Shown: one piece after another, positions 2,845 through 52,726 of the stretch
Position numbering within the stretch: position 1 is the first letter of the stretch
Layout: each line of letters begins with the position of its first letter
From: Candidatus Wolfebacteria bacterium
GTDB taxonomy: Bacteria; Patescibacteriota; Minisyncoccia; UBA6257; UBA9933
Assembly (NCBI GenBank): GCA_024654025.1
Contig: JANLIR010000007.1
Span: forward strand, 421-64,420
Length of the DNA stretch: 64,000 nucleotides
Direction of reading: 5' to 3'
Position numbers and translations under genes: made by a program
Notes under the pieces: generated by a model
The model's input: the letters and a program-made list of their open reading frames with translations, nothing else
What the model was told of the DNA's origin: nothing
Database searches by the model: none

Positions 2845-3369
2845 ATGGAAATAAAACAGCGATTAGGCAGAAAAACTTTTTGGATTTTTGTTTTATCGAA
2901 TTCCAAAGCGGCTTTCGCTTTTCTTTTAGTCACAATAGTTTTAATTGTCAGCCGGGGGTATGTCGGAAACAACTTCACGGATATTTTGAATTACAGCATT
3001 ATTGTGGCTGGAGTTATTTTTACCAACGCTCTTTTATTGAGCATTGTTGTTTCGTGGTTGGTATATATTAACTACACGTTTTCCATAACGGAAAACGCTT
3101 TTAAAGTGAGGGAGGGGATTTTTAATAAAAAAGAAACCGCCATTCCTTACAGGCAAATACAGAGCGTTGATCTTCGCCAGGATGTTGTTGCCCAAATTAT
3201 CGGCGTAAGTAAGCTTGTGGTGCTTACGGCCGGGCACGACGATAACGATAAAACAGGCGAGGCAGAAATTGATTTTCCGGTGATAGACACGGAGTTTGCT
3301 CAAAATATACAAACAGAATTGTTAAAGCGCTCCCAAACGGAAAAAATCGTTATTCAAAAAGCAGAATGA
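2845..3369 (+). CDS. membrane protein with bacterial PH (bPH_2 / YdbS-like) domain
   Basis: two N-terminal TM helices followed by a soluble domain of YdbS/DUF304 type. Confidence 0.45.
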   Translation: MEIKQRLGRKTFWIFVLSNSKAAFAFLLVTIVLIVSRGYVGNNFTDILNYSIIVAGVIFTNALLLSIVVSWLVYINYTFSITENAFKVREGIFNKKETAIPYRQIQSVDLRQDVVAQIIGVSKLVVLTAGHDDNDKTGEAEIDFPVIDTEFAQNIQTELLKRSQTEKIVIQKAE

Positions 3370-3460: not shown

Positions 3461-3724
3461 ATGAATAATCATATGAACAATCACGGTTTTGTAGGAATAA
3501 TTGTTATTGTTATTACGGTGGCGATAATCGCGCTTTTATTTGTTAAGTATGCAGGCGTTTTTGTTAATAATCCGGGAAATTCCGCCATCTCAACAGAACC
3601 TTCAGGATCTTTTTTAGCTCCGATTGATTATGCCCGGCAGGCGGCTTCTTCGGCTGATGAGTACGGCCAAAATATACAAAAAGTTTTTGACCAGGCGAAA
3701 AAAGCCGGCCAAGCGCAACAATAA
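3461..3724 (+). CDS. small membrane-anchored hypothetical protein
   Basis: 87 aa, one TM helix. Confidence 0.35.
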   Translation: MNNHMNNHGFVGIIVIVITVAIIALLFVKYAGVFVNNPGNSAISTEPSGSFLAPIDYARQAASSADEYGQNIQKVFDQAKKAGQAQQ

Positions 3725-3823
3725 TTTTAACATGATTTATTATCTCGCGAGGTTTGATTGACAAAATATTATAAAAGTGCTATTTCTAGCTTAGTATTTA
3801 TTTCAATAGAAAGGAGCAAGAAC

Positions 3824-4180
3824 GTGTCGACAAAAAATACCAGGTCGGGTGGAAAATACGGCGGTGGCCATACGACCATGATTCCTGCCGCGATTATCGT
3901 AGCCGATATTGTTGAAAGACAGCCAGAGGTTTCGCGGATTTCTCCCGGTATTTTGAAAGCCGGACTTAAGTCTGCCAACGGACAAAGGCGAGTTAAAATC
4001 TCAGATTGGGAAGGAGGAATTCTTCTTTCGGTTCGGGACAACACAACTCACCAGGAGGTAAGAGTTTACACGAGCAATTCTCACGTTACAAAGCTGGCGA
4101 TAGCCCGCGGAGCCAGAAACGCCGGCCTGCACATTTCTTTTGGGAATTTGCGGGAATTTAGTAGCAGACTGATAAAATAA
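3824..4180 (+). CDS. hypothetical protein (island ORF 1; GTG start with strong SD AAAGGAG)
   Basis: ORF in GC-richer island; AAAGGAG 7 nt upstream of GTG at 3824; no recognisable domain. Confidence 0.4.
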   Translation: MSTKNTRSGGKYGGGHTTMIPAAIIVADIVERQPEVSRISPGILKAGLKSANGQRRVKISDWEGGILLSVRDNTTHQEVRVYTSNSHVTKLAIARGARNAGLHISFGNLREFSSRLIK

Positions 4181-13811: not shown

Positions 13812-15044
13812 ATGCAATTTAGTAAAAAATATGTTTTGGCGGTCTCTGTGCCTATTTTAGTTCTGATGGGATATTGGGGGTTGGCAACTAAAAAAAACAT
13901 CACTCTTTTGTCTCTGGTGTCTTTGGAAAAAAATGAAAACGCGATAAACTCCAGCTCAACTGAAAAAAAACTAAATGAATTTGTCAGAAACCCCGTTTTT
14001 ATAAACACTCCTGATGTTGTAAAGGGGATTTATTTAACAAGTTGGTCGGGAGGAAGCAAGAAAAAAATTGATGAGGTTATTAAACTTTCAAAAACATTCG
14101 GTATAAATTCGGTAGTTATAGACATAAAAGATTTTTCCGGTTATTTGGCCTATGATACTGGTTTGGAGCAGGTTAAAAAATATAAGGCTCACGAGATAAA
14201 AATCGCTAATATAACAGATGTTATTAATAAATTGCATAGCGAGAATATTTATACCATTGCTCGAATTACGGTTTTTCAGGATCCGGTTATGGCAAAAACG
14301 CGGCCGGACTTAGCGGTTAGAAGAAAATCCACAGGCGGGATTTGGCTGGATAGAAAAGGCTTGGGTTGGATTGATCCATCAAATAAAGATTATTGGAATT
14401 ATATAGTTGACATTTCTAAAGACGCGCGCAGCCGAGGATTTGATGAATTAAATTTTGATTATATCCGGTTTCCTTCGGACGGAAATTTGGCGGATATGGA
14501 ATTTCCATCGTGGAACCGGAAAATTCCAAAACACGAAATTATCAGAGAATTTTTTAAACACTTAAGGGATAATTTGCCCGGCGTTAAAATATCCGCTGAT
14601 CTTTTCGGTTTGGCCACCATCCAAAAGGACGATTTGGGCATTGGCCAGATAATTGAAGACGCGTATGAAAATTTTGATTATGTTTCGCCTATGGTTTATC
14701 CGTCGCATTACGCAAGCGGATTTTTGGGATATAAAAGTCCCGCGAAGTATCCTTATGAAGTCATTAAATATTCGATGGACAGCGCGGTTAAAAAGTTGAG
14801 CTTGCTTGATGGAAGCGCGGGTGCCACTTCGACTGCTTCTGCCAGTTCAACAAATTTAATAGCCAGTAATAAAAAATTTGCAGAGCTTAGGCCTTGGATC
14901 CAAGATTTTGATTTAGGCGCGGATTATAACGTTCAAATGGTGAAGTTGGAAATTGACGCGATAAAAGACGCTTTGGGTAGCGGGTTTACGGGTTTTATGC
15001 TATGGTCTCCGTCTAATATATACACCGTGGAAGCCCTGCGTTAG
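13812..15044 (+). CDS. putative glycoside-hydrolase-like (TIM-barrel, COG1306-type) membrane-anchored protein
   Basis: N-terminal TM; 'GIYLTSWSGG...INSVVIDIKD...IARITVFQD' resembles putative GH-like family proteins. Confidence 0.45.
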   Translation: MQFSKKYVLAVSVPILVLMGYWGLATKKNITLLSLVSLEKNENAINSSSTEKKLNEFVRNPVFINTPDVVKGIYLTSWSGGSKKKIDEVIKLSKTFGINSVVIDIKDFSGYLAYDTGLEQVKKYKAHEIKIANITDVINKLHSENIYTIARITVFQDPVMAKTRPDLAVRRKSTGGIWLDRKGLGWIDPSNKDYWNYIVDISKDARSRGFDELNFDYIRFPSDGNLADMEFPSWNRKIPKHEIIREFFKHLRDNLPGVKISADLFGLATIQKDDLGIGQIIEDAYENFDYVSPMVYPSHYASGFLGYKSPAKYPYEVIKYSMDSAVKKLSLLDGSAGATSTASASSTNLIASNKKFAELRPWIQDFDLGADYNVQMVKLEIDAIKDALGSGFTGFMLWSPSNIYTVEALR

Positions 15045-15077
15045 ATAATAATATATGTTAAAATAAATTTAATAAAT

Positions 15078-15209
15078 CCCGCACCTTTATTAGATTTAAA
15101 TTTTTAACGAAGCCAACGACAATTTAATTAATTTTGATATTTTTATAAAATAATGATTAGTTATAAATTAACAAAATTTTATTGCTTCGCGATCTAATAA
15201 AGGTGCGGG
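15078..15209. mobile_element. MITE-like palindromic element, family 1, copy 1
   Basis: terminal inverted repeats (T)CCCGCACCTTTATTAGAT ... ATCTAATAAAGGTGCGGG(A); flanked by TAAA/TAAA 4-bp direct repeats. Confidence 0.65.
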
Positions 15210-15231
15210 ATAAAATTAATTATTAAATAGT

Positions 15232-16788
15232 ATGTCCAAAATTATAAACTTTATAAAAGCCAGGAAATTTTCGGTTGGAGGATTGCTGTTATTCGTCGTT
15301 GTGGCGAGCTATTTTTTATTTATAAGAACCAAACCAAGCGGTTTAAAATTTTTTACCGTTACAAGGGGCGAAGTTAAGTCCGAAGTAAGCGTTACGGGAA
15401 AAGTAAAGCCATCTAAAAACTTGGATTTAGCCTTTGAAAAAAGCGGCCGCATAACTAGAATTTATGTTAAGGTAGGCGACAAAGTCGGCGAAGGTCAGCA
15501 ATTAGTCAGCTTGGATAATTCCGATTTGATTGCTCAACTTGCGCAGGCCCAAGCCAATCTTAAATCGCAGGAAGTAAAATTAGAGCAACTGAAAAAAGGC
15601 ACTCGGCCGGAGCAAATAAAAATCCATCAAGCCCAATTAGATAAAGCGAAACAAGATTTGACTAATTATTATTCGGGGGCGGTGAACGTACTTACTGACT
15701 CATACACAAAATCGGATGACGCGATAAGAAAGCAAGTCGGCGGGCTGTTTACGGGATTAACCACGTCTAATCCGCAATTGATTTTTTCTTCAAGCGACTC
15801 GCAGGCGGTTATAGACGTCCAAACGAAAATGGCGCTGTCAATCGCCGCTCTTGATAGTTGGCGAAGTCAATTAAGCATTCTTAATTCTTCTGATTCGGCG
15901 GCAATAGAACAAGCCATTAATAATTCAGATAAGTATTTGAATATCGTCAAAGGCATGCTTGACCGATTGACAGATTCGTTAAATAGCTCGTTTGGGATTT
16001 CTTCCGCAACGATTGATTCATATAAACTTAACGTTAATACTGCCAGAGCCAATGTGAATACAGCGATAACCAATATTAGCAACCAATTGCAATCAATATT
16101 GTCGCAAAAAATCGTAGTCCAGACGAATCAAGATCAGCTTTCTTTGGATTTAGCCGGTTCGACTGCGGAAGATATTTCTTATCAACAAGCGCAGGTTGAT
16201 TCAGTGGCGGCCAATGTCGCTTATTATCAGTCGCAGGTTTCTAAAACTGTTTTAAGAGCGCCTTTTTCAGGTACGGTGACAAAAGTGAATTTTGACCCCG
16301 GAGACATTATCCCTGCGAATACCGCGGCTGTTTCGTTGATCGGTGTGGGGCAATACGAGATAGAGGCCAATGTTGCCGAATCGGACATTGCCGACGTGAA
16401 AATAGGAAATACGGCAAGAGTTACTTTGGACGCTTACGGTTCAGATGTGGTTTTCGGGGCAAAAGTCGTTCAAATAGATTTATCTTCAACTGTTTTAGAG
16501 GGAGTAGCGACTTATAAAACGACATTGCAGTTTTTGAATAGTGATTCAAGAATATTGGCAGGGTTCACGGCGAACGTCGATATTTTAAGCGCGCTGAAAG
16601 AAAACGTTCTTTACGTCCCGACGCGGGATATACTTACCAGAGACACTAAAAAATACGTTAAATTAGTAAAAGATGAAAAAAATGGAATTGTGGAGGAGTC
16701 GCAAATTACCATTGGGCTTCGCGGTTCTGACGGAAGAACTGAAGTTGTATCGGGCTTGAATGAAGGAGACAAAATTGTTGTTGACTAA
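15232..16788 (+). CDS. efflux transporter periplasmic adaptor subunit (HlyD/MacA family)
   Basis: N-terminal TM, long coiled-coil, beta-barrel/lipoyl-like segments typical of membrane-fusion proteins. Confidence 0.75.
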   Translation: MSKIINFIKARKFSVGGLLLFVVVASYFLFIRTKPSGLKFFTVTRGEVKSEVSVTGKVKPSKNLDLAFEKSGRITRIYVKVGDKVGEGQQLVSLDNSDLIAQLAQAQANLKSQEVKLEQLKKGTRPEQIKIHQAQLDKAKQDLTNYYSGAVNVLTDSYTKSDDAIRKQVGGLFTGLTTSNPQLIFSSSDSQAVIDVQTKMALSIAALDSWRSQLSILNSSDSAAIEQAINNSDKYLNIVKGMLDRLTDSLNSSFGISSATIDSYKLNVNTARANVNTAITNISNQLQSILSQKIVVQTNQDQLSLDLAGSTAEDISYQQAQVDSVAANVAYYQSQVSKTVLRAPFSGTVTKVNFDPGDIIPANTAAVSLIGVGQYEIEANVAESDIADVKIGNTARVTLDAYGSDVVFGAKVVQIDLSSTVLEGVATYKTTLQFLNSDSRILAGFTANVDILSALKENVLYVPTRDILTRDTKKYVKLVKDEKNGIVEESQITIGLRGSDGRTEVVSGLNEGDKIVVD

Positions 16789-17516: not shown

Positions 17517-18758
17517 ATGAAATTCAGGGATAATTTAAAAATGTCTTATTCGGGATTGACAACGCACATGTCGCGTTCGGTTTTGACCATATTGGGAATT
17601 GTTATCGGCATTACCGCGATAATTATAGTTATGTCTCTTGGGCAAAGCGCGCAGAATTTGATTGTGGGGGAAATACAATCAATGGGGCCGGAAACAATCG
17701 TTGTTTTGCCGGGCAAACAGCCTAAAGGGTTAAGCGATGTCGGCGGATCAATATTTGGCGATTCATTAAAAGAGAGAGATTTTAAGGATTTAAGCAAAAA
17801 AGAAAATGTTCCCGATGCCGTCAATGTTGGTCCGGTTGTTTTCAGCCAAATCAACTCTTCTTATGGATCGGAGACTTACGACACCATGATTTTGGGGGTA
17901 TCTCCTTCGATGTTTAAAACATTTGGCCTTGAAGTAAATCCGCCCGGAACGCTTTTTGGATCCAACGACGTTAATGAAAAATCCAGCGTTGTTATTTTAG
18001 GGAATAAAGCTCAAACCGAACTTTTTGGCAACTCTGATTCAATTGGAGAAAAAATTAAAATAAAAGGGAAAAATTTCAAAGTTATAGGCGTTCTGATAAA
18101 AAAGGGGCAGTCCTCGTTTGTTAATTTTGACGACCATATAATAGCGCCCTACACGACAGTTCAGGATTTGTCGGGCTTGAAATATTTCAACAGAATAGCG
18201 GTGACGGCTAAATCCGTGGAGGCAATTCCAAGCGTCATTAAGGACATAGAGCTTGTTTTAAGGACTAACCATAAAATTGACGATCCAAAAAATGACGATT
18301 TTTATATTCAAACACAGGAAGATCTGGTTAAAAGCATCAGCAGCATAACGGATATTTTGACGATTTTTCTGGGTTCCGTGGCCGCTATATCTCTGGTAGT
18401 GGGCGGAATTGGCATTATGAATATTATGTTTGTATCGGTTACCGAACGCACTCGCGAGATTGGGTTAAGAAAGGCGCTGGGCGCTACCAATAAAAATATT
18501 TTGGTCCAGTTTTTGACCGAAGCGGTTATTTTGACCGTAACCGGCGGGGTGATAGGCATTATTTTCGGGACCGGACTAACCGCTTTGACCGTGGTTGTTT
18601 TAAACAAGTTCGCGGGCATTAATTTTTCTTTTTCTTTTCCTATAGACGGAGCGCTTTTAGGACTGTTCGTTTCCAGCGCGGTTGGTTTTATTTTCGGAAT
18701 TTTCCCGGCGCGCAAGGCTTCACTAAAGAGTCCCATTGAGGCGTTAAGATACGAATAA
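17517..18758 (+). CDS. ABC transporter permease (FtsX/MacB family)
   Basis: N-terminal TM, large periplasmic domain, C-terminal FtsX-like 3-TM bundle. Confidence 0.85.
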   Translation: MKFRDNLKMSYSGLTTHMSRSVLTILGIVIGITAIIIVMSLGQSAQNLIVGEIQSMGPETIVVLPGKQPKGLSDVGGSIFGDSLKERDFKDLSKKENVPDAVNVGPVVFSQINSSYGSETYDTMILGVSPSMFKTFGLEVNPPGTLFGSNDVNEKSSVVILGNKAQTELFGNSDSIGEKIKIKGKNFKVIGVLIKKGQSSFVNFDDHIIAPYTTVQDLSGLKYFNRIAVTAKSVEAIPSVIKDIELVLRTNHKIDDPKNDDFYIQTQEDLVKSISSITDILTIFLGSVAAISLVVGGIGIMNIMFVSVTERTREIGLRKALGATNKNILVQFLTEAVILTVTGGVIGIIFGTGLTALTVVVLNKFAGINFSFSFPIDGALLGLFVSSAVGFIFGIFPARKASLKSPIEALRYE

Positions 18759-18759
18759 A

Positions 18760-18896
18760 CCCCGCACCTTTAGAAGATATTAACGCCCCGACGCTTTTAT
18801 TTAATATCGATATTTGTTTAAAAATATAGGCTTTTTATCATTGCCGCTTTTTACTAAAGGGCGTTTTTAAAAGCGTAATCTTCTAAAGGTGCGGGG
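18760..18896. mobile_element. MITE-like palindromic element, family 1, copy 2
   Basis: CCCCGCACCTTTAGAAGAT ... ATCTTCTAAAGGTGCGGGG; flanked by TAAA/TAAA. Confidence 0.65.
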
Positions 18897-18897
18897 T

Positions 18898-40170: not shown

Positions 40171-41196
40171 ATGGAATTCGATTTAAACAAAATAAAAAAA
40201 TCCGCTCAGGAGGCCATAGAAGAACTTGCCAGTCCGGAAAAACTAGAGGAAATAAAAATTAAATTTTTGGGCAGAAAAAGCGAACTCACCGAACTTTTGC
40301 GTTCTTTAAAGGATTTGTCGATTGAAGAAAGGCGTAAATTAGGTCCGAAGCTTCAAGAGTTAAAAAAAGAATTAGAAAGGTCTTTTGACAAAAGACTCAA
40401 AGATCTTCGTATTTCACATTCTACGCTTCGCGAACGCATTGACGTTACCAAGCCGGGGCATAAAATTACTTCCGGTCATATCCATCCCTTGTCAAAAATC
40501 GAAGAAGAAATCGAGCAGATTTTTTTATCAATGAATTTTTCCGTGGTTGAGGGTCCGGAAGTTGAAGATGAATACCACAATTTTGACGCCTTAAACATCC
40601 CCAAAGACCATCCGGCAAGGGAGATGTGGGACACATTTTGGCTTCGCCAAAATGAAATCAAAAATCAAAAATCAAAAATCAAAAATCCTGAAAAACTATT
40701 ACTAAGAACTCATACGAGTCCGATGCAGATACGCTATATGGAGAAAAATAATCCGCCTTTTCAAATTATTGTGCCAGGCAGGGTTTTTCGCTACGAGGCC
40801 ACTGACGCGTCGCATGAAATAAATTTTTATCAAGTAGAAGGGCTTATGGTTGGCAAAGATATGAGTTTGGCGAATTTTAAATTTGTCGTTGAGGAATTTT
40901 TTAAAAAGTTTTTCGGCAGCCAAAAAATAGAGTTTCGGTTCAGGCCGAGCTATTTTCCGTTTGTTGAGCCCGGGGTTGAAGTAGATATCAAATTAGGCAA
41001 AAGCGGCAAGTGGCTGGAAGTAATGGGCGCGGGCATGGTGCACAGAAAAGTTTTTGACGCTGTCGGCTATAACCCTAATGACGTAACGGGTTTTGCTTTT
41101 GGTCTTGGTTTAGAGCGCTTGGCGATGATTAAATACAAGATTCCGGACATCAGATTATTTTATTCGGGAGATTTGAGATTTATTAAGCAATTTTAA
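40171..41196 (+). CDS. pheS: phenylalanine--tRNA ligase alpha subunit
   Basis: class II aaRS motifs 'HPAREMWDTFW', 'LLRTHTSPMQIRYM', 'FRPSYFPFVEPG', 'GAGMVHRKV', 'GFAFGLGLERLAMI'. Confidence 0.95.
   Translation: MEFDLNKIKKSAQEAIEELASPEKLEEIKIKFLGRKSELTELLRSLKDLSIEERRKLGPKLQELKKELERSFDKRLKDLRISHSTLRERIDVTKPGHKITSGHIHPLSKIEEEIEQIFLSMNFSVVEGPEVEDEYHNFDALNIPKDHPAREMWDTFWLRQNEIKNQKSKIKNPEKLLLRTHTSPMQIRYMEKNNPPFQIIVPGRVFRYEATDASHEINFYQVEGLMVGKDMSLANFKFVVEEFFKKFFGSQKIEFRFRPSYFPFVEPGVEVDIKLGKSGKWLEVMGAGMVHRKVFDAVGYNPNDVTGFAFGLGLERLAMIKYKIPDIRLFYSGDLRFIKQF
40654..40688 (+). repeat. (AAAATCA)~5 heptanucleotide tandem repeat inside pheS
   Basis: gaaatcaaaaatcaaaaatcaaaaatcaaaaatcc encoding NEIKNQKSKIKNP in a variable surface loop. 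Confidence 0.8.
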
Positions 41197-41255
41197 AGGG
41201 CTTTGTCTAAATTTTGAAGCCGTCAGGCGAACAAAATTTAGATGCAAAACCTTTA

Positions 41256-41539
41256 CCCAGCACCTTTTTATGCATTATGTTTATATAATTCAAAGCAATA
41301 AAACGGGTGCTCTGTATTTTGGAAGAACCAATAATCTTGTTCAAAGATTAAAAGATCACAATAATGGAAGTAACTTTTCAACAAAAGAACAGAAACCGTG
41401 GCATTATGTTTATACCGAAGGCTATTTATCAGAAAAAGACGCAATACAACGAGAGTTAAAGTTGAAAAATTACGGCAACGCTAGAACATATGTCAGAAAA
41501 CGAATTCAAAACAGTTTAAAATAATAAAAAGGTGCTGGG
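41256..41539 (+). mobile_element. GIY-YIG gene cassette bounded by 17-bp perfect inverted repeats
   Basis: ACCCAGCACCTTTTTAT (41255-41271) and ATAAAAAGGTGCTGGGT (41524-41540) abut the start and stop codons of the GIY-YIG ORF; the IR core CCC(A/G)GCACCTTT resembles the family-1 MITE TIR. Confidence 0.5.
41270..41524 (+). CDS. GIY-YIG nuclease superfamily small protein (UPF0213/YhbQ-like)
   Basis: 'YVYIIQSNKTGALYFGRTNNLVQRLKDHN' GIY-(x10)-YIG with conserved R and E/N. Confidence 0.75.
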   Translation: MHYVYIIQSNKTGALYFGRTNNLVQRLKDHNNGSNFSTKEQKPWHYVYTEGYLSEKDAIQRELKLKNYGNARTYVRKRIQNSLK

Positions 41540-41599
41540 TGCTCAATTTTATAGTAAAATTGACTGCGCCTACGGCTTGTAAATTTTAATAAAATTGGC

Positions 41600-43675
41600 A
41601 TGAAATTCTCGTATAAATTATTAAAACAATTAGTTCCGCAGATAAAAAACCAAAACGAGTTGGTTGATAAATTGACAATGCACGCGTTTGAAATTGACAG
41701 CGTGAAAGGGGATACGATTGACATAAAACTTCCGCCAAACAGATATTCAGACGCTGGATCGCATATTGGAATAGCGCGTGAAATTGCGGCAATTTCAAAC
41801 TACAAACTTAAAACTAAAAACTACGGACAAAAAGAAAAAAATAAAAAGAAATCGTATTTTAACGTAAAAATCCAGGATAAAAATTTATGTCCGCGTTACA
41901 CTGCTCAATACTTTGAAAATATTAAAATAAGCGCGTCTCCGAAATGGATACAGGATGTTTTAAAAACCTGCGGATTAAGGCCGATAAATAATGTCGTGGA
42001 CATAATGAATTACGTAATGCTTGAAACCGGCCAGCCTTTGCACGCGTTTGATTACGACAAACTTTACGCTAAAGGCGGAAAACAACCAACGATAATTATA
42101 AGAAAAGCGAATAAAGGAGAAAAAATAATCTCGCTTGACGGCGAAAAGTACAATTTAGACCCGGATGTTTTAGTTATTTCCGACGAAAAAGAAGTGTTGG
42201 CAATTGCCGGCATAAAAGGCGGCAAGATTGCGGAAGTGGACAAAAATACAAAAAGAATTATTGTTGAATCCGCAAATTTTGATCCCGTTAACATATATAA
42301 AACTTCAAAAAAACTTTTGCTTTCAACAGACGCTTCTTTAAGATTTTCGCGGAATTTAAGCCCTGAACTGGCGATTTTAGGCTTAAATAGAGCGGGGCAG
42401 TTGCTTATAGAGATCGCCAAAGCGTCTTCTGGCGCAGTTATCGATGTTTATCCAAAAAAGCAGTCTAAAAAAATAGTAAAATTCGACACAGAAAGATTTA
42501 GAAAATTTATCGGATTAGGTTTGGATTTTAAAACCTTCAAAAATTATTTTGAAAGTTTAGGGTTTATCGTTAAAGTTCCGGCTGACCAATTAACTAATTC
42601 GCCAATTAACCAGTTCTTTGTGGAGGTTTCACTGTTTCGCGTTGATATTGAAACATTTGAGGATTTAGCGGAAGAGATAGTCAGACTATACGGTTATGGT
42701 AAATTAAAATCAGTTCCGCCGTACGCGTTTTTAAAACCTTCCGGATTCGAGGATCAAATAGTTTTAAAAAATAAAATCAGAAAAATTTTAACCGGAATCG
42801 GATTAAGCGAAATTTATAACTATTCTTTTATTTCCGATAAGGAAGGCGAGTTAGATTTCGGGTTTGCTAAAAATAAATTAATCGAACTCGAAAATCCCAT
42901 TAGCAGTCAGTTCAAATATTTAAGGCCTAATTTAGAAATCGGTCTTGTTAAAAACATAAGCGATAACAGCCGGTTTTTTAACGAAGTTCATATTTTTGAG
43001 ATTGGTAAGATTTTTTCCGCCGGAGGCGGACCCGCTGATGGCGGGGAAATCGGTAAAGTTTTTTCCGCCAAAGGCGGATCCGCCTATGGAGGGCAGGCCG
43101 GTAAAGAAACATTGGCGTTAGGGATGATTTTATCCGACAAAAATCAGGAGACGTTTTTTAAATTAAAAGGGATTATTTCCGCGCTATTTAAGAAAATCGG
43201 CCTGGTGAACTATTCTTTTACCGAATCCGAAGCAAATGTTTTGCTTATAAAATCAGGAAATAAGTTTTTGGGCAGTATTAGAAAAAAATATGACTCGCCT
43301 AAAAAACAAATTTCTTCAGCGGAAATAAATTTGGACGAACTTCTGGTTTTAATCGAGGGAGAACACGAATTCCGGCCGCTTCCGAAATTTCCCTCTGTTA
43401 TGCGGGACATTTCTATTGCCGTTTTAGAGTCCGCAAAAGTTGGAAATATTATTGAGGAGATCCAGGAGGCAAACATGAAATACATCGAAGACGTTGATTT
43501 AATAGATGAATACGATTTAACAAAATCAAATTCTTCCGCCGATAAAGGCGTAAGCTATACTTTTCGAATTATTTTCCAAGCCCCTGACCGGACCTTAACC
43601 GACCAAGAAGTTGACAAGGAGATGGAGAAAATTATTTCAATTTTAAAAAATAAGTTTCGCGCTTCTTTGAGATAA
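41600..43675 (+). CDS. pheT: phenylalanine--tRNA ligase beta subunit
   Basis: N-terminal tRNA-binding/B3-4 and B5 domains, C-terminal FDX-ACB; contains an in-frame 48-nt tandem duplication. Confidence 0.9.
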   Translation: MKFSYKLLKQLVPQIKNQNELVDKLTMHAFEIDSVKGDTIDIKLPPNRYSDAGSHIGIAREIAAISNYKLKTKNYGQKEKNKKKSYFNVKIQDKNLCPRYTAQYFENIKISASPKWIQDVLKTCGLRPINNVVDIMNYVMLETGQPLHAFDYDKLYAKGGKQPTIIIRKANKGEKIISLDGEKYNLDPDVLVISDEKEVLAIAGIKGGKIAEVDKNTKRIIVESANFDPVNIYKTSKKLLLSTDASLRFSRNLSPELAILGLNRAGQLLIEIAKASSGAVIDVYPKKQSKKIVKFDTERFRKFIGLGLDFKTFKNYFESLGFIVKVPADQLTNSPINQFFVEVSLFRVDIETFEDLAEEIVRLYGYGKLKSVPPYAFLKPSGFEDQIVLKNKIRKILTGIGLSEIYNYSFISDKEGELDFGFAKNKLIELENPISSQFKYLRPNLEIGLVKNISDNSRFFNEVHIFEIGKIFSAGGGPADGGEIGKVFSAKGGSAYGGQAGKETLALGMILSDKNQETFFKLKGIISALFKKIGLVNYSFTESEANVLLIKSGNKFLGSIRKKYDSPKKQISSAEINLDELLVLIEGEHEFRPLPKFPSVMRDISIAVLESAKVGNIIEEIQEANMKYIEDVDLIDEYDLTKSNSSADKGVSYTFRIIFQAPDRTLTDQEVDKEMEKIISILKNKFRASLR
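43001..43096 (+). repeat. 2 x 48-nt in-frame tandem duplication within pheT (IGKIFSAGGGPADGGE / IGKVFSAKGGSAYGGQ)
   Basis: ~75% identical adjacent 48-mers. Confidence 0.75.
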
Positions 43676-49577: not shown

Positions 49578-49621
49578 TTTTATAATTTGCGGAAGCGGGA
49601 GGCCACAGCATCATAACAAGT

Positions 49622-49637
49622 AATGGTGCTGGGTAAA
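49622..49637 (-). repeat. solo copy of the GIY-YIG cassette terminal repeat next to tRNA-Ser
   Basis: minus strand reads ATTTTACCCAGCACCATT; 13/13 match to TTTACCCAGCACC at 41250-41262. Confidence 0.35.
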
Positions 49638-49653
49638 ATTCTCACTATTTTTG

Positions 49654-49742
49654 CGGTGGGGGTGAGATTTGAACTCACGATGCCCTTGCGAGCATACCAC
49701 ATTTCGAGTGTGGCGCCTTAAACCGGACTCAGCCACCCCACC
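49654..49742 (-). tRNA. tRNA-Ser (anticodon CGA)
   Basis: revcomp: GGTGGGGTGGCTGAGTCCGG...CCACACTCGAAATGTGG (anticodon CGA) long variable arm, T-loop GAGTTCAAATCTCAC, acceptor CCCCACC. Confidence 0.75.
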
Positions 49743-52409: not shown

Positions 52410-52546
52410 ACCCCGCACCTTTAAAAGATATTAACGCCTCGCCGCTTTATTTAGTATCGATATTTATTTAAAATATGGGTTTTTACTAATGCCGATTTTT
52501 ACTAAAAGGCGTTTTTTAAAAAGCGCAATCTTTTAAAGGTGCGGGG
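52410..52546. mobile_element. MITE-like palindromic element, family 1, copy 3
   Basis: CCCCGCACCTTTAAAAGAT ... ATCTTTTAAAGGTGCGGGG, flanked by TCAA/TCAA; interior ~85% identical to copy 2. Confidence 0.65.
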
Positions 52547-52726
52547 TCAACCCTTTTCGATTAAATGTGGATAAGTCTATTTGAGTTCTTGCGGCCTATG
52601 CTATAATAAAAACAATATCGAAACCGCAGTATTTTGTTTCGATTTTAAATAATTTGAAAAGGTCGAGATGAAAATCTACAAGTCGATTAATTTTTTACAG
52701 AAATAAAAAAGGAATAAAAATAATTC

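Follow-up and report, generated by a model that had tools for sequence, protein, structure and literature searches.

Why should a gene for a very small nuclease lie between pheS and pheT, with a perfect inverted repeat drawn tightly around its start and stop codons? The question is raised by a 64,000-nucleotide (64-kb) stretch of contig JANLIR010000007.1 (assembly GCA_024654025.1) of a Candidatus Wolfebacteria bacterium, referred to below as the window, in which an 84-aa open reading frame (ORF) of the GIY-YIG family separates the two genes. A sequence-only reading of this DNA had proposed a small mobile or hairpin-bounded cassette, possibly linked to non-coding palindromic elements elsewhere in the window that were regarded as MITEs (miniature inverted-repeat transposable elements). 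In this paper we describe the complete unit, which is 403 bp long and has the appearance of a very small selfish element associated with a family of hairpin repeats, together with the type of unit to which it belongs, which is widespread in Patescibacteria (the candidate phyla radiation, CPR). The proposed cassette and its link to the palindromic elements are both supported, with the correction that the supposed MITEs are hairpin repeats with conserved stems and unrelated interiors.

Members of this group share a repeat whose 5' arm is rich in C and whose 3' arm is rich in G (core ACCCnGCACC...GGTGCnGGGT), in many cases with extra outer hairpins, and they are found at operon junctions, in 16S rRNA helix loops and in helix P3 of RNase P RNA. 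We first discuss the architecture of the unit in the window and the protein it encodes, then its presence and absence in relatives, and finally the explanations that might account for it.

Architecture of the unit between pheS and pheT

The gene layout places the 84-aa ORF between pheS (40171–41196) and pheT (41600–43675), all on the plus strand, and Pfam confirms both neighbours as well as the GIY-YIG assignment itself (E=7.8e-17), as the sequence-only reading had it. The pheS coding sequence could be aligned with those of relatives as far as its TAA stop codon (41194–41196), and because pheS aligns up to its stop and pheT from its start, these two codons are the boundaries of the insert and the whole of 41197–41599 is inserted DNA, and not just the 284 bp to which the unit had at first been assigned.

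From left to right the unit, which is read on the plus strand, consists of a left outer hairpin, a left repeat arm, the ORF, a right repeat arm and a right outer hairpin. The left outer flank (41197–41254) forms its own extended hairpin, with the stem TCTAAATTTTG/CAAAATTTAGA at 41206–41216 and 41232–41242 closed by AAAGG/CCTTT (dG -21.6, z -5.5). It is followed by the left arm ACCCAGCACCTTTTTAT (41255–41271), which overlaps the start codon and contains the AT of the ATG, and by the nuclease gene (41270–41524). The right arm ATAAAAAGGTGCTGGGT (41524–41540) begins on the final base of the TAA stop codon, and the right outer flank (41541–41599), again with an extended hairpin of its own (GCTCAATTTTAT.../...ATAAAATTGGC; dG -15.3, z -4.4), ends at the pheT start codon. 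The two arms had been described as perfect 17-bp repeats abutting the start and stop codons; they are indeed perfect, with 17 of 17 nucleotides paired across the 252 nt that separate them, and only their coordinates had been placed one base off. Compared with shuffled flanks in a local-alignment test, the repeat has a z of 12. The entire 403 bp is predicted to fold into three adjacent helices (dG -98.6, z -4.8), of which the middle one is the long-range 17-bp stem enclosing the ORF, such that the gene is flanked by an outer hairpin on its 5' and 3' sides and is itself spanned by a stem.

No Rfam model matched the pheS–pheT locus above noise, no plus-strand promoter or terminator belonging to the unit could be recognised within it, and there is no second GIY-YIG gene in the window, the gene being single-copy there. 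The motifs of the outer flanks occur in the window only at the cassette, and therefore the flanks travel with the gene in this stretch of DNA.

A bare, single-domain GIY-YIG protein

The Pfam match to the GIY-YIG domain (PF01541) covers residues 1–74 of the 84, and the residues Y5, Y16, R26, H30, E50 and E62 do not vary within the family, those of the putative active site (Y5, Y16 and E62) being the same in all 15 members compared. An AlphaFold2 model has a mean pLDDT of 84, with a confident core and about 15 low-scoring residues at the C-terminus, and predicts three strands with the helices typical of GIY-YIG domains plus a basic C-terminal helix, with no extra domain. The nearest proteins by sequence in a phmmer search were the UPF0213 structure 1zg2 (E=2.3e-5) and Slx1 (E=2.5e-3). 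Comparison of the model by Foldseek likewise pointed to 1zg2 (UPF0213 BH0048, E=3e-4) and to Slx1 (TM score 0.65–0.68, root-mean-square deviation 2.0–2.4 Å, about 30% identity), while I-TevI gave a marginal structural match only. UPF0213 proteins (YhbQ, BH0048) and prokaryotic Slx1-like proteins are therefore closest in both sequence and fold. Slx1 is a structure-specific nuclease whose substrates are branched DNA and stem-loops, and its eukaryotic form requires a RING domain and Slx4; for UPF0213 proteins we know of no described association with repeats or mobility.

Several other assignments were considered and rejected. The homing-type family TIGR01453 scored 19 bits against a cut-off of 56, and searches of NCBIfam, PADLOC and PHROGs returned no meaningful family, with no defence-model match and only a weak PHROG hit, which leaves a defence or phage role unsupported. 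Viral contigs yielded essentially nothing (one partial match) and a plasmid collection gave a single weak match, from Radiobacillus.

Presence and absence in relatives

The pheS–pheT junction was compared with five relatives' pheS loci, which encode four distinct PheS proteins that are 72–89% identical. The GIY-YIG gene is absent from the junction in all five sampled relatives (L090–L096), in agreement with what had been expected of a mobile cassette, and the junctions themselves are varied, one of them being bare and the others holding small inserts unrelated to the unit. In L093 (3647–3649) the two genes are joined by a bare TAA-T-ATG with 1 bp between them, and in L090 they are separated by an AT-rich spacer of 42 bp. 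A palindromic insert of 114 bp that terminates in ATCCCGTTAGAAAT / ATTTCTAACGGG lies flush with the pheT start codon in L091 (2061–2174) and L092, and L094 (2675–2782) has a different insert of 106 bp, with CGAATAAA tandem repeats and a GAGCGAAGCG end. In the relative with 72% identity, a Lys/Glu-rich ORF of 134 aa, with no match in Pfam, lies between pheS and pheT (L095:2878–3282, L096:1462–1866). L093 and L094 encode an identical PheS protein, yet have 1 bp and a 106-bp insert, respectively, at the junction, so that a different small element is polymorphic at this site, present in the one and absent from the other. Judged against these close relatives, the 403-bp unit is an insertion, and the alignments indicate that small palindromic elements have landed repeatedly at the pheS–pheT junction.

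Homologues of the nuclease with 58–93% identity occupy five other protein-gene contexts, so that the search for further bounded units suggested by the initial reading was rewarded. These are the junctions between thioredoxin reductase (trxB) and GAPDH (gap) genes (L001–L006), between a pilT-like ATPase gene and pilC (L007), between DUF8128 and TrwB-like genes (L008), between TrmB and NusA genes (L009) and between lepB and hisS (L010, where the protein is 93% identical). The same ACCCAGCACC...GGTGCTGGGT repeat bounds the gene throughout L001–L010, flush with its start and stop codons, and over all homologues it was seen in no fewer than six contexts besides that of the window. Conservation between contexts extends beyond the ORF to the entire intergenic region, with a shared 5' order of TAA-(A)GGnnTTTGyC, hairpin, GCAAAACCTT(T), arm and ORF, and a shared 3' order of arm, GCTCAATTTT, hairpin and AAAATTGGC-ATG of the next gene; the latter end motif is common to the window, L001, L007, L008 and L010. 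In these same four loci the outer hairpins differ in sequence from those of the window while the pairing is kept. Concerted change is also seen in the arms, where TTGTTTGTTT replaces TTTTT in both arms of L009, L014 and L018 (TTATTTGTTT in L015).

Taking protein-gene junctions, rRNA and RNase P RNA genes together, at least ten unrelated insertion contexts are known, and the insertion sites have no common sequence. No target-site duplication of fixed length was found, 38 of 39 elements having chance matches of 0–3 nt only. The remaining element (L034:2964–3282) has an 11-nt direct repeat, GCGCCCATAGT, on both sides of the cassette, which corresponds to the 5' end of tRNA-Arg(gcg) and is the sole clear flanking duplication in this set. 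The best reading of these comparative data is that units of the 403-bp type have changed sites over evolutionary time.

Related hairpins without a gene

The sequence-only reading had noted that the repeat core comes close to the terminus of the supposed MITEs, and this holds. When up to one mismatch is allowed, CCCAGCACCTTT occurs nine times in the window against 0.18 expected, a number reached in none of 100 shuffles, and its matches include both ends of two palindromic elements of about 138 bp with ACCCCGCACCTTT termini. The first of these ORF-less elements (18759–18897; 20-bp perfect terminal stem ACCCCGCACCTTTAGAAGAT, z -7.3) starts where the upstream ORF 17517–18758 ends, immediately behind its stop codon, and a second copy of it lies at 52410–52547 (stem ACCCCGCACCTTTAAAAGAT, z -5.9). 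A third element (15076–15211; z -9.0), with the variant stem ATCCCGCACCTTTATTAGAT and the termini ATCCCGCACCTTT, nearly fills the spacer between the co-directional ORFs 13812–15044 and 15232–16788. Each of the three has a 20-bp perfect terminal stem and a z between -6 and -9, and the stem types represented are ACCCCGCACC and ATCCCGCACC.

The stem of the nuclease unit itself is represented elsewhere in the window by a degenerate short hairpin of the ACCCAGCACC type on the minus strand (49603–49637), which is weak (dG -6, z -2.1). It had been recorded as a solo copy of the repeat end 17 nt downstream of tRNA-Ser(cga) (49653–49742); the copy exists, but the distance is 15 nt and the matching sequence (49625–49637) is one arm of a decayed hairpin. 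The first 14 nt of this hairpin (ACCCAGCACCATTA) recur unchanged in an ORF-less hairpin next to the L019 and L020 cassettes. A census of the window thus gives one degenerate extra copy of the unit's own stem and three copies of the sister stem.

The similarity to the MITE terminus recurs outside the window, where ACCCCGCACC(TTT), the very terminus of the window's supposed MITEs, encloses the GIY-YIG homologues of L022, L025 and L028, and where in L014, L018, L021 and L031 ORF-less hairpins lie near the local nuclease unit and have its stem. The 20-nt MITE terminus was found at 13 metagenome loci, 12 of which have a partner arm 59–134 nt away. The interiors of these 12 are unrelated, meaning that it is the stem that is conserved and that there is no MITE body, and none of the 13 is a GIY-YIG-containing (master) copy. 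In L014 (129–5423), six units within 6.2 kb share the ACCCAGCACC...GGTGCTGGGT stem and related outer flanks, with loops of about 10 nt, 21 nt, 77–87 nt (three units) and, in one case, the GIY-YIG ORF. The three loops of about 80 nt contain ORFs of 29–40 codons that read through the right arm, which encodes KGAGCK. L018, L021 and L031 likewise have further ORF-less copies of the stem of their own unit, at two to three units each. Since units with the same stem are mostly ORF-less, the nuclease gene is an occasional loop cargo of a dispersed hairpin-repeat family.

In L031, CCCCCCACCAC...GTGGTGGGGGG stems (717–778, 2296–2396 and 2901–3182) bracket the leader-peptide region of type IV pilin-like genes, with the G-rich arm encoding a Gly run ahead of the FTLIE motif and the GIY-YIG ORF in the equivalent position before the third pilin-like ORF. 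This is reminiscent of the clustering of NTS repeats at surface-protein genes in Neisseria. Several unit flanks contain the motif GCGAAGC. This sequence is an exceptionally stable DNA mini-hairpin, and its presence in the flanks fits structure formed at the DNA level.

Insertions in structural RNA genes

Cassettes of the same type are found within 16S rRNA genes, on the rRNA strand, in L021 (2806–4855), L046 (2899–5775) and L065 (2897–3454). Read by eye from the flanks, those of L046 and L065 appear to lie in helix 6 (V1) and that of L021 in the V2 region. L021 also has a group I intron (3601–3885) holding a second, ORF-less hairpin of the same stem (3757–3798).

In three further loci (L050:2983–3271, L027:2981–3271 and L033:2981–3271) helix P3 of RNase P RNA is replaced by a GIY-YIG hairpin of about 290 bp. 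The 5' strand of P1 lies upstream of the cassette, conserved region CR-I (GGAAAGTCC) follows one base after the right arm, and CR-V with a perfect 10–13-nt complement forming the 3' strand of P1 lies 270–421 nt downstream. These interrupted RNase P RNA genes are missed or mis-aligned by Rfam. The incomplete locus L039 probably has the same P3 arrangement; L073 was considered as a further insertion of this kind and rejected, as it is not in RNase P RNA. The stem type of L039, CCCCCCACCAC, also occurs at sites outside RNase P RNA (L031, L052 and L068), from which it follows that the stem belongs to the element and not to the host RNA.

ORF-bearing intervening sequences (IVSs) of rRNA genes are the obvious comparison here, their hallmark being that the insert, on the RNA strand, sits in a variable helix at its terminal loop and has a helix of its own to close it. 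L021, L046, L065, L050, L027 and L033 all have this arrangement; the window copy is intergenic, so that the comparison does not apply to it. GIY-YIG ORFs in non-intron insertions of CPR rRNA genes are already on record, where they were judged to be "outside the context of homing", and that study makes no mention of inverted repeats (PMC11270868). Beyond its findings, the present data add the inverted repeats, the sites at operon junctions and in RNase P RNA, the hairpins that share the stem and lack an ORF, and the co-variation of repeat and protein. In our literature searches we met with no account of ORFs within the RNase P RNA of CPR bacteria.

Distribution and conservation of the repeat in CPR

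Relatives were collected by scanning one genome per GTDB species, which gave 446, and the best 80 of them are mostly from Patescibacteria. A HMMER search against 1.84 billion representatives produced 18,583 matches at E<=1e-3, and 3,506 at E<=1e-10. Repeat analysis was carried out on 82 loci, and a significant flank-to-flank inverted repeat (z>=5) is present in 39 of these, with the right arm at, or a few bases from, the stop codon. No such repeats were found in the non-CPR relatives examined. The flanks of L053, L086 and L089 (two labelled non-CPR and one a Nealsonbacteria metagenome-assembled genome) contain the tRNA T-arm sequence GGTTCGAATCC, indicating that these genes adjoin tRNA genes instead of sitting within inverted repeats.

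The quality of the arms was assessed on 39 arm pairs obtained by an exact-seed search, a set that overlaps with the z>=5 set and is not identical to it. Thirty-three of these pairs are perfect over 10–22 nt, and mismatches affect 6 of 663 paired positions, all of them transitions (five G·T on the coding strand and one C·A). The type of arm follows the protein cluster, being ACCCAGCACC in cl03, the clade of the window, ACCCCGCACCTTT in cl09, ACCCCCACACC in cl14, CCCCGCTC... in cl20 and CCCCCCACCAC in cl21; altogether at least 12 distinct stems were seen, each beside its nuclease gene.

Purifying selection acts on the ORF (dN/dS about 0.1). When the window is compared with either L001 or L009, synonymous sites are found to be saturated, yet the arms of 16–17 nt are identical, and so the arm sequence must itself be constrained, beyond the need for complementarity. 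Conservation of the arm, together with the way in which it tracks the protein lineage, suggests that the protein reads the stem. Among bounded cassettes with two nearby neighbours, 20 of 22 are on the same strand as both, which, with the lack of a plus-strand promoter or terminator, fits expression by read-through from the host operon. In L025 (2975–3232) the GIY-YIG gene is a pseudogene with two in-frame stops, and its ACCCCGCACC arms are still perfect.

Two features of the genes on either side of the window's unit may be recorded here. Within pheS there is a low-complexity AAATCAAAAATC run (40649–40700) encoding an NQKSKIKN insert, and pheT has an internal Gly-rich near-duplication (42978–43121; …GKIFSAGGGPADGGEIGKVFSAKGGSAYGGQAGKE…) that is shorter or absent in relatives, judging by protein lengths of 666–713 aa compared with 691 aa here.

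A hairpin-repeat loop occupied by a nuclease gene

The closest described parallel is provided by the Ssn nucleases (cd10448) and their NTS and SRM hairpin repeats (Chenal et al., Nat Commun 2025, PMC11893778). Ssn proteins are single-domain GIY-YIG enzymes of about 94 aa, with the catalytic residues Y6, Y17 and E64 in SsnA, which bind a specific hairpin in single-stranded DNA (ssDNA) only and cleave a few nucleotides 5' of it (PMC11893778). Cognate hairpin repeats, of which there are hundreds of dispersed copies, lie on either side of their genes, and the authors likened the NTS-ssnA-NTS layout to an insertion sequence and proposed domestication of the system in Neisseria (PMC11893778). Patescibacteria are nowhere mentioned in that paper (PMC11893778), and they were probably little sampled by its RefSeq survey. 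The units described here resemble Ssn systems in having a stand-alone GIY-YIG protein of less than 150 aa (84 aa in the window), in the spacing of Y5, Y16 and E62, which matches that of Y6, Y17 and E64 of SsnA within one residue, and in a gene bracketed by inverted, hairpin-forming repeats whose cognate copies are intergenic and dispersed, as seen in L014, L018, L021 and L031, and co-vary with the nuclease lineage.

A second parallel, in layout only, is with repetitive extragenic palindromes (REPs) and their RAYT proteins ("REPtrons"), where a small nuclease gene is also flanked by inverted copies of dispersed extragenic palindromes that are its presumed substrates, and where the repeats likewise follow stop codons in operons. 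RAYTs are HUH/Y1 enzymes that form covalent intermediates, and they are usually single-copy and vertically inherited; the enzyme here is instead a hydrolytic GIY-YIG protein and the location of the unit varies between genomes. In the sequences compared, the present units are set apart from both Ssn and REP/RAYT pairings by a gene that lies inside the hairpin, by a location that changes and by the colonisation of structural RNA helices in CPR.

On balance, and by a modest margin of confidence, we favour a CPR variant of the Ssn logic, that is, a minimal selfish unit in which the loop of a hairpin repeat is occupied by the gene of a GIY-YIG nuclease. The nuclease would recognise its own cognate stem in single-stranded or extruded DNA, with the gene tolerated as a loop, and would nick next to that stem, whereupon repair or recombination by the host would place copies of the ORF-bearing hairpin in other cognate hairpins or at new sites. 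Ssn enzymes tolerate removal of the loop or its arbitrary extension (PMC11893778), and a stem with the 252-nt gene as its loop is therefore a plausible substrate; with perfect arms, the stem is the same on either DNA strand. Once transcribed, the stem would fold the ORF out of the host RNA and so leave insertions in rRNA, RNase P RNA and operon mRNA harmless, and it would also sequester the nuclease's own start codon. The window's three supposed MITEs of the ACCCCGCACC type would then be ORF-less members of a sister family of hairpins, whose cognate nuclease lineage (seen in L022 and L025) would be lacking from the window.

A number of points weigh against this interpretation. GIY-YIG enzymes hydrolyse DNA and provide no strand transfer or rejoining, which makes the integration step entirely hypothetical, and no consistent target-site duplication was found among the 39 elements. 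A near-identical pair of filled and empty sites was not found for the GIY-YIG unit itself, and we infer its movement from comparative data. Within the 64-kb window the unit's own type of stem has only one further copy, which is degenerate. The six arm mismatches are too few, and in part not independent, to assign a folding strand, and the 5:1 asymmetry of G·T over A·C accordingly identifies none. As for Ssn, its genes lie between complete hairpins, in contrast to the present units, where one hairpin has its two arms on opposite sides of the gene. The SRM consensus HGTCWYN(0-2)YYVSBRHN(0-5)WNVSBRGN(0-2)RNCYNB had no matches in the window or in L001–L009, nor any within 500 bp of the gene in 80 loci. 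The suggested kinship with Ssn draws on the published description and on residue spacing.

There is also a bolder form of the same idea, which we put forward tentatively and regard as on the doubtful side. These units, at about 290–400 bp, could be the smallest autonomous mobile elements so far seen in bacteria, a distinct class in which a bare 84-aa nuclease drives "hairpin-loop homing" into cognate hairpins. Such elements would seed and maintain REP-like repeats throughout Patescibacteria and would settle in helix loops of rRNA and RNase P RNA, and theirs would be the ancestral selfish role for Ssn.

Alternative explanations

The alternative that fares best, though we think it unlikely, is that of an IVS-like element in which the repeat acts at the RNA level only, looping out the ORF, perhaps with excision by RNase III as in rRNA intervening sequences, and the nuclease is an ordinary homing endonuclease acting on double-stranded DNA. 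The cassettes in the terminal loops of 16S helices and in P3 of RNase P RNA would be well explained in this manner, as they lie on the RNA strand with the repeat continuing the host helix, and so would the strong bias to co-orientation, the predicted sequestration of start and stop codons in the RNA fold and the GIY-YIG ORFs recorded in non-intron CPR rRNA insertions (PMC11270868). The homing endonucleases I-TevI and SegA–G offer a comparable arrangement, a GIY-YIG domain encoded by a selfish gene that lies between conserved genes and is co-oriented with them. These enzymes bind DNA through a separate C-terminal domain, and each homes to a single cognate site. The 84-aa protein is a bare domain without a DNA-binding domain, to which I-TevI is a marginal structural match, and its insertion sites are unrelated and have no common sequence, in keeping with the verdict of "outside the context of homing" given in the rRNA study (PMC11270868). 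Action on RNA alone would also leave unexplained why the sequence of the arms follows the protein lineage and persists even where synonymous sites are saturated, and why ORF-less hairpins of the same stem abound.

Somewhat less probable again is a domesticated host system, in which the repeats are REP-like regulatory or structural elements of the host, an Slx1-like host enzyme processes the hairpins or cruciforms that they form, and the gene sits in a repeat for autoregulation. The Slx1/UPF0213-like fold and the purifying selection are what would be expected of a host enzyme, and orientation and the missing promoter are consistent with co-transcription with housekeeping operons. The repeats at pilin gene leaders in L031 would fit as well, domestication having been proposed for Ssn in Neisseria by its authors (PMC11893778). 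A host function is hard to reconcile with a gene that is absent from the junction in the closest relatives, lies at a different site in nearly every sampled genome, has no fixed genomic position and is present in one copy in 64 kb, or with the pseudogenised copy in L025 and the interruption of essential RNA genes.

We consider it improbable that the unit is a classical cut-and-paste transposon with terminal inverted repeats, with the GIY-YIG protein as a transposase of double-stranded DNA and the MITEs as its deletion derivatives. It has inverted repeats around a single ORF, many contexts and ORF-less elements that share its termini, as such a transposon would, but it lacks a consistent, fixed-length target-site duplication. 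The ORF-less elements share the stem only, their interiors being unrelated to one another or to the ORF unit, from which MITE interiors ought to derive. Perfect arms are unusual for the terminal repeats of insertion sequences, and, as is established for the superfamily, GIY-YIG chemistry lacks strand transfer and rejoining. A chance repeat or an assembly artefact, for which nothing speaks beyond the AT-rich background, can be dismissed, given the z of 12 against shuffles and the recurrence of the repeat in dozens of independent assemblies (NCBI, ENA, JGI and Logan).

Implications

If the units are indeed a CPR variant of Ssn, their occurrence as filled and empty states at orthologous sites, and at many unrelated positions, would supply the comparative evidence for mobility that the Ssn hypothesis has lacked. 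They could account in concrete terms for the non-intron GIY-YIG insertions known from CPR rRNA genes, and they extend such insertions to RNase P RNA. For annotation it matters that such units split the RNase P RNA and 16S models and can cause RNA genes to be missed. As the presumptive recognition stem adjoins the gene of each nuclease lineage, the family also amounts to a catalogue of candidate sequence-specific ssDNA nucleases. For the streamlined genomes of these organisms, a nuclease gene housed in the loop of a hairpin offers a possible mechanism for both the origin and the maintenance of their abundant intergenic hairpin repeats.

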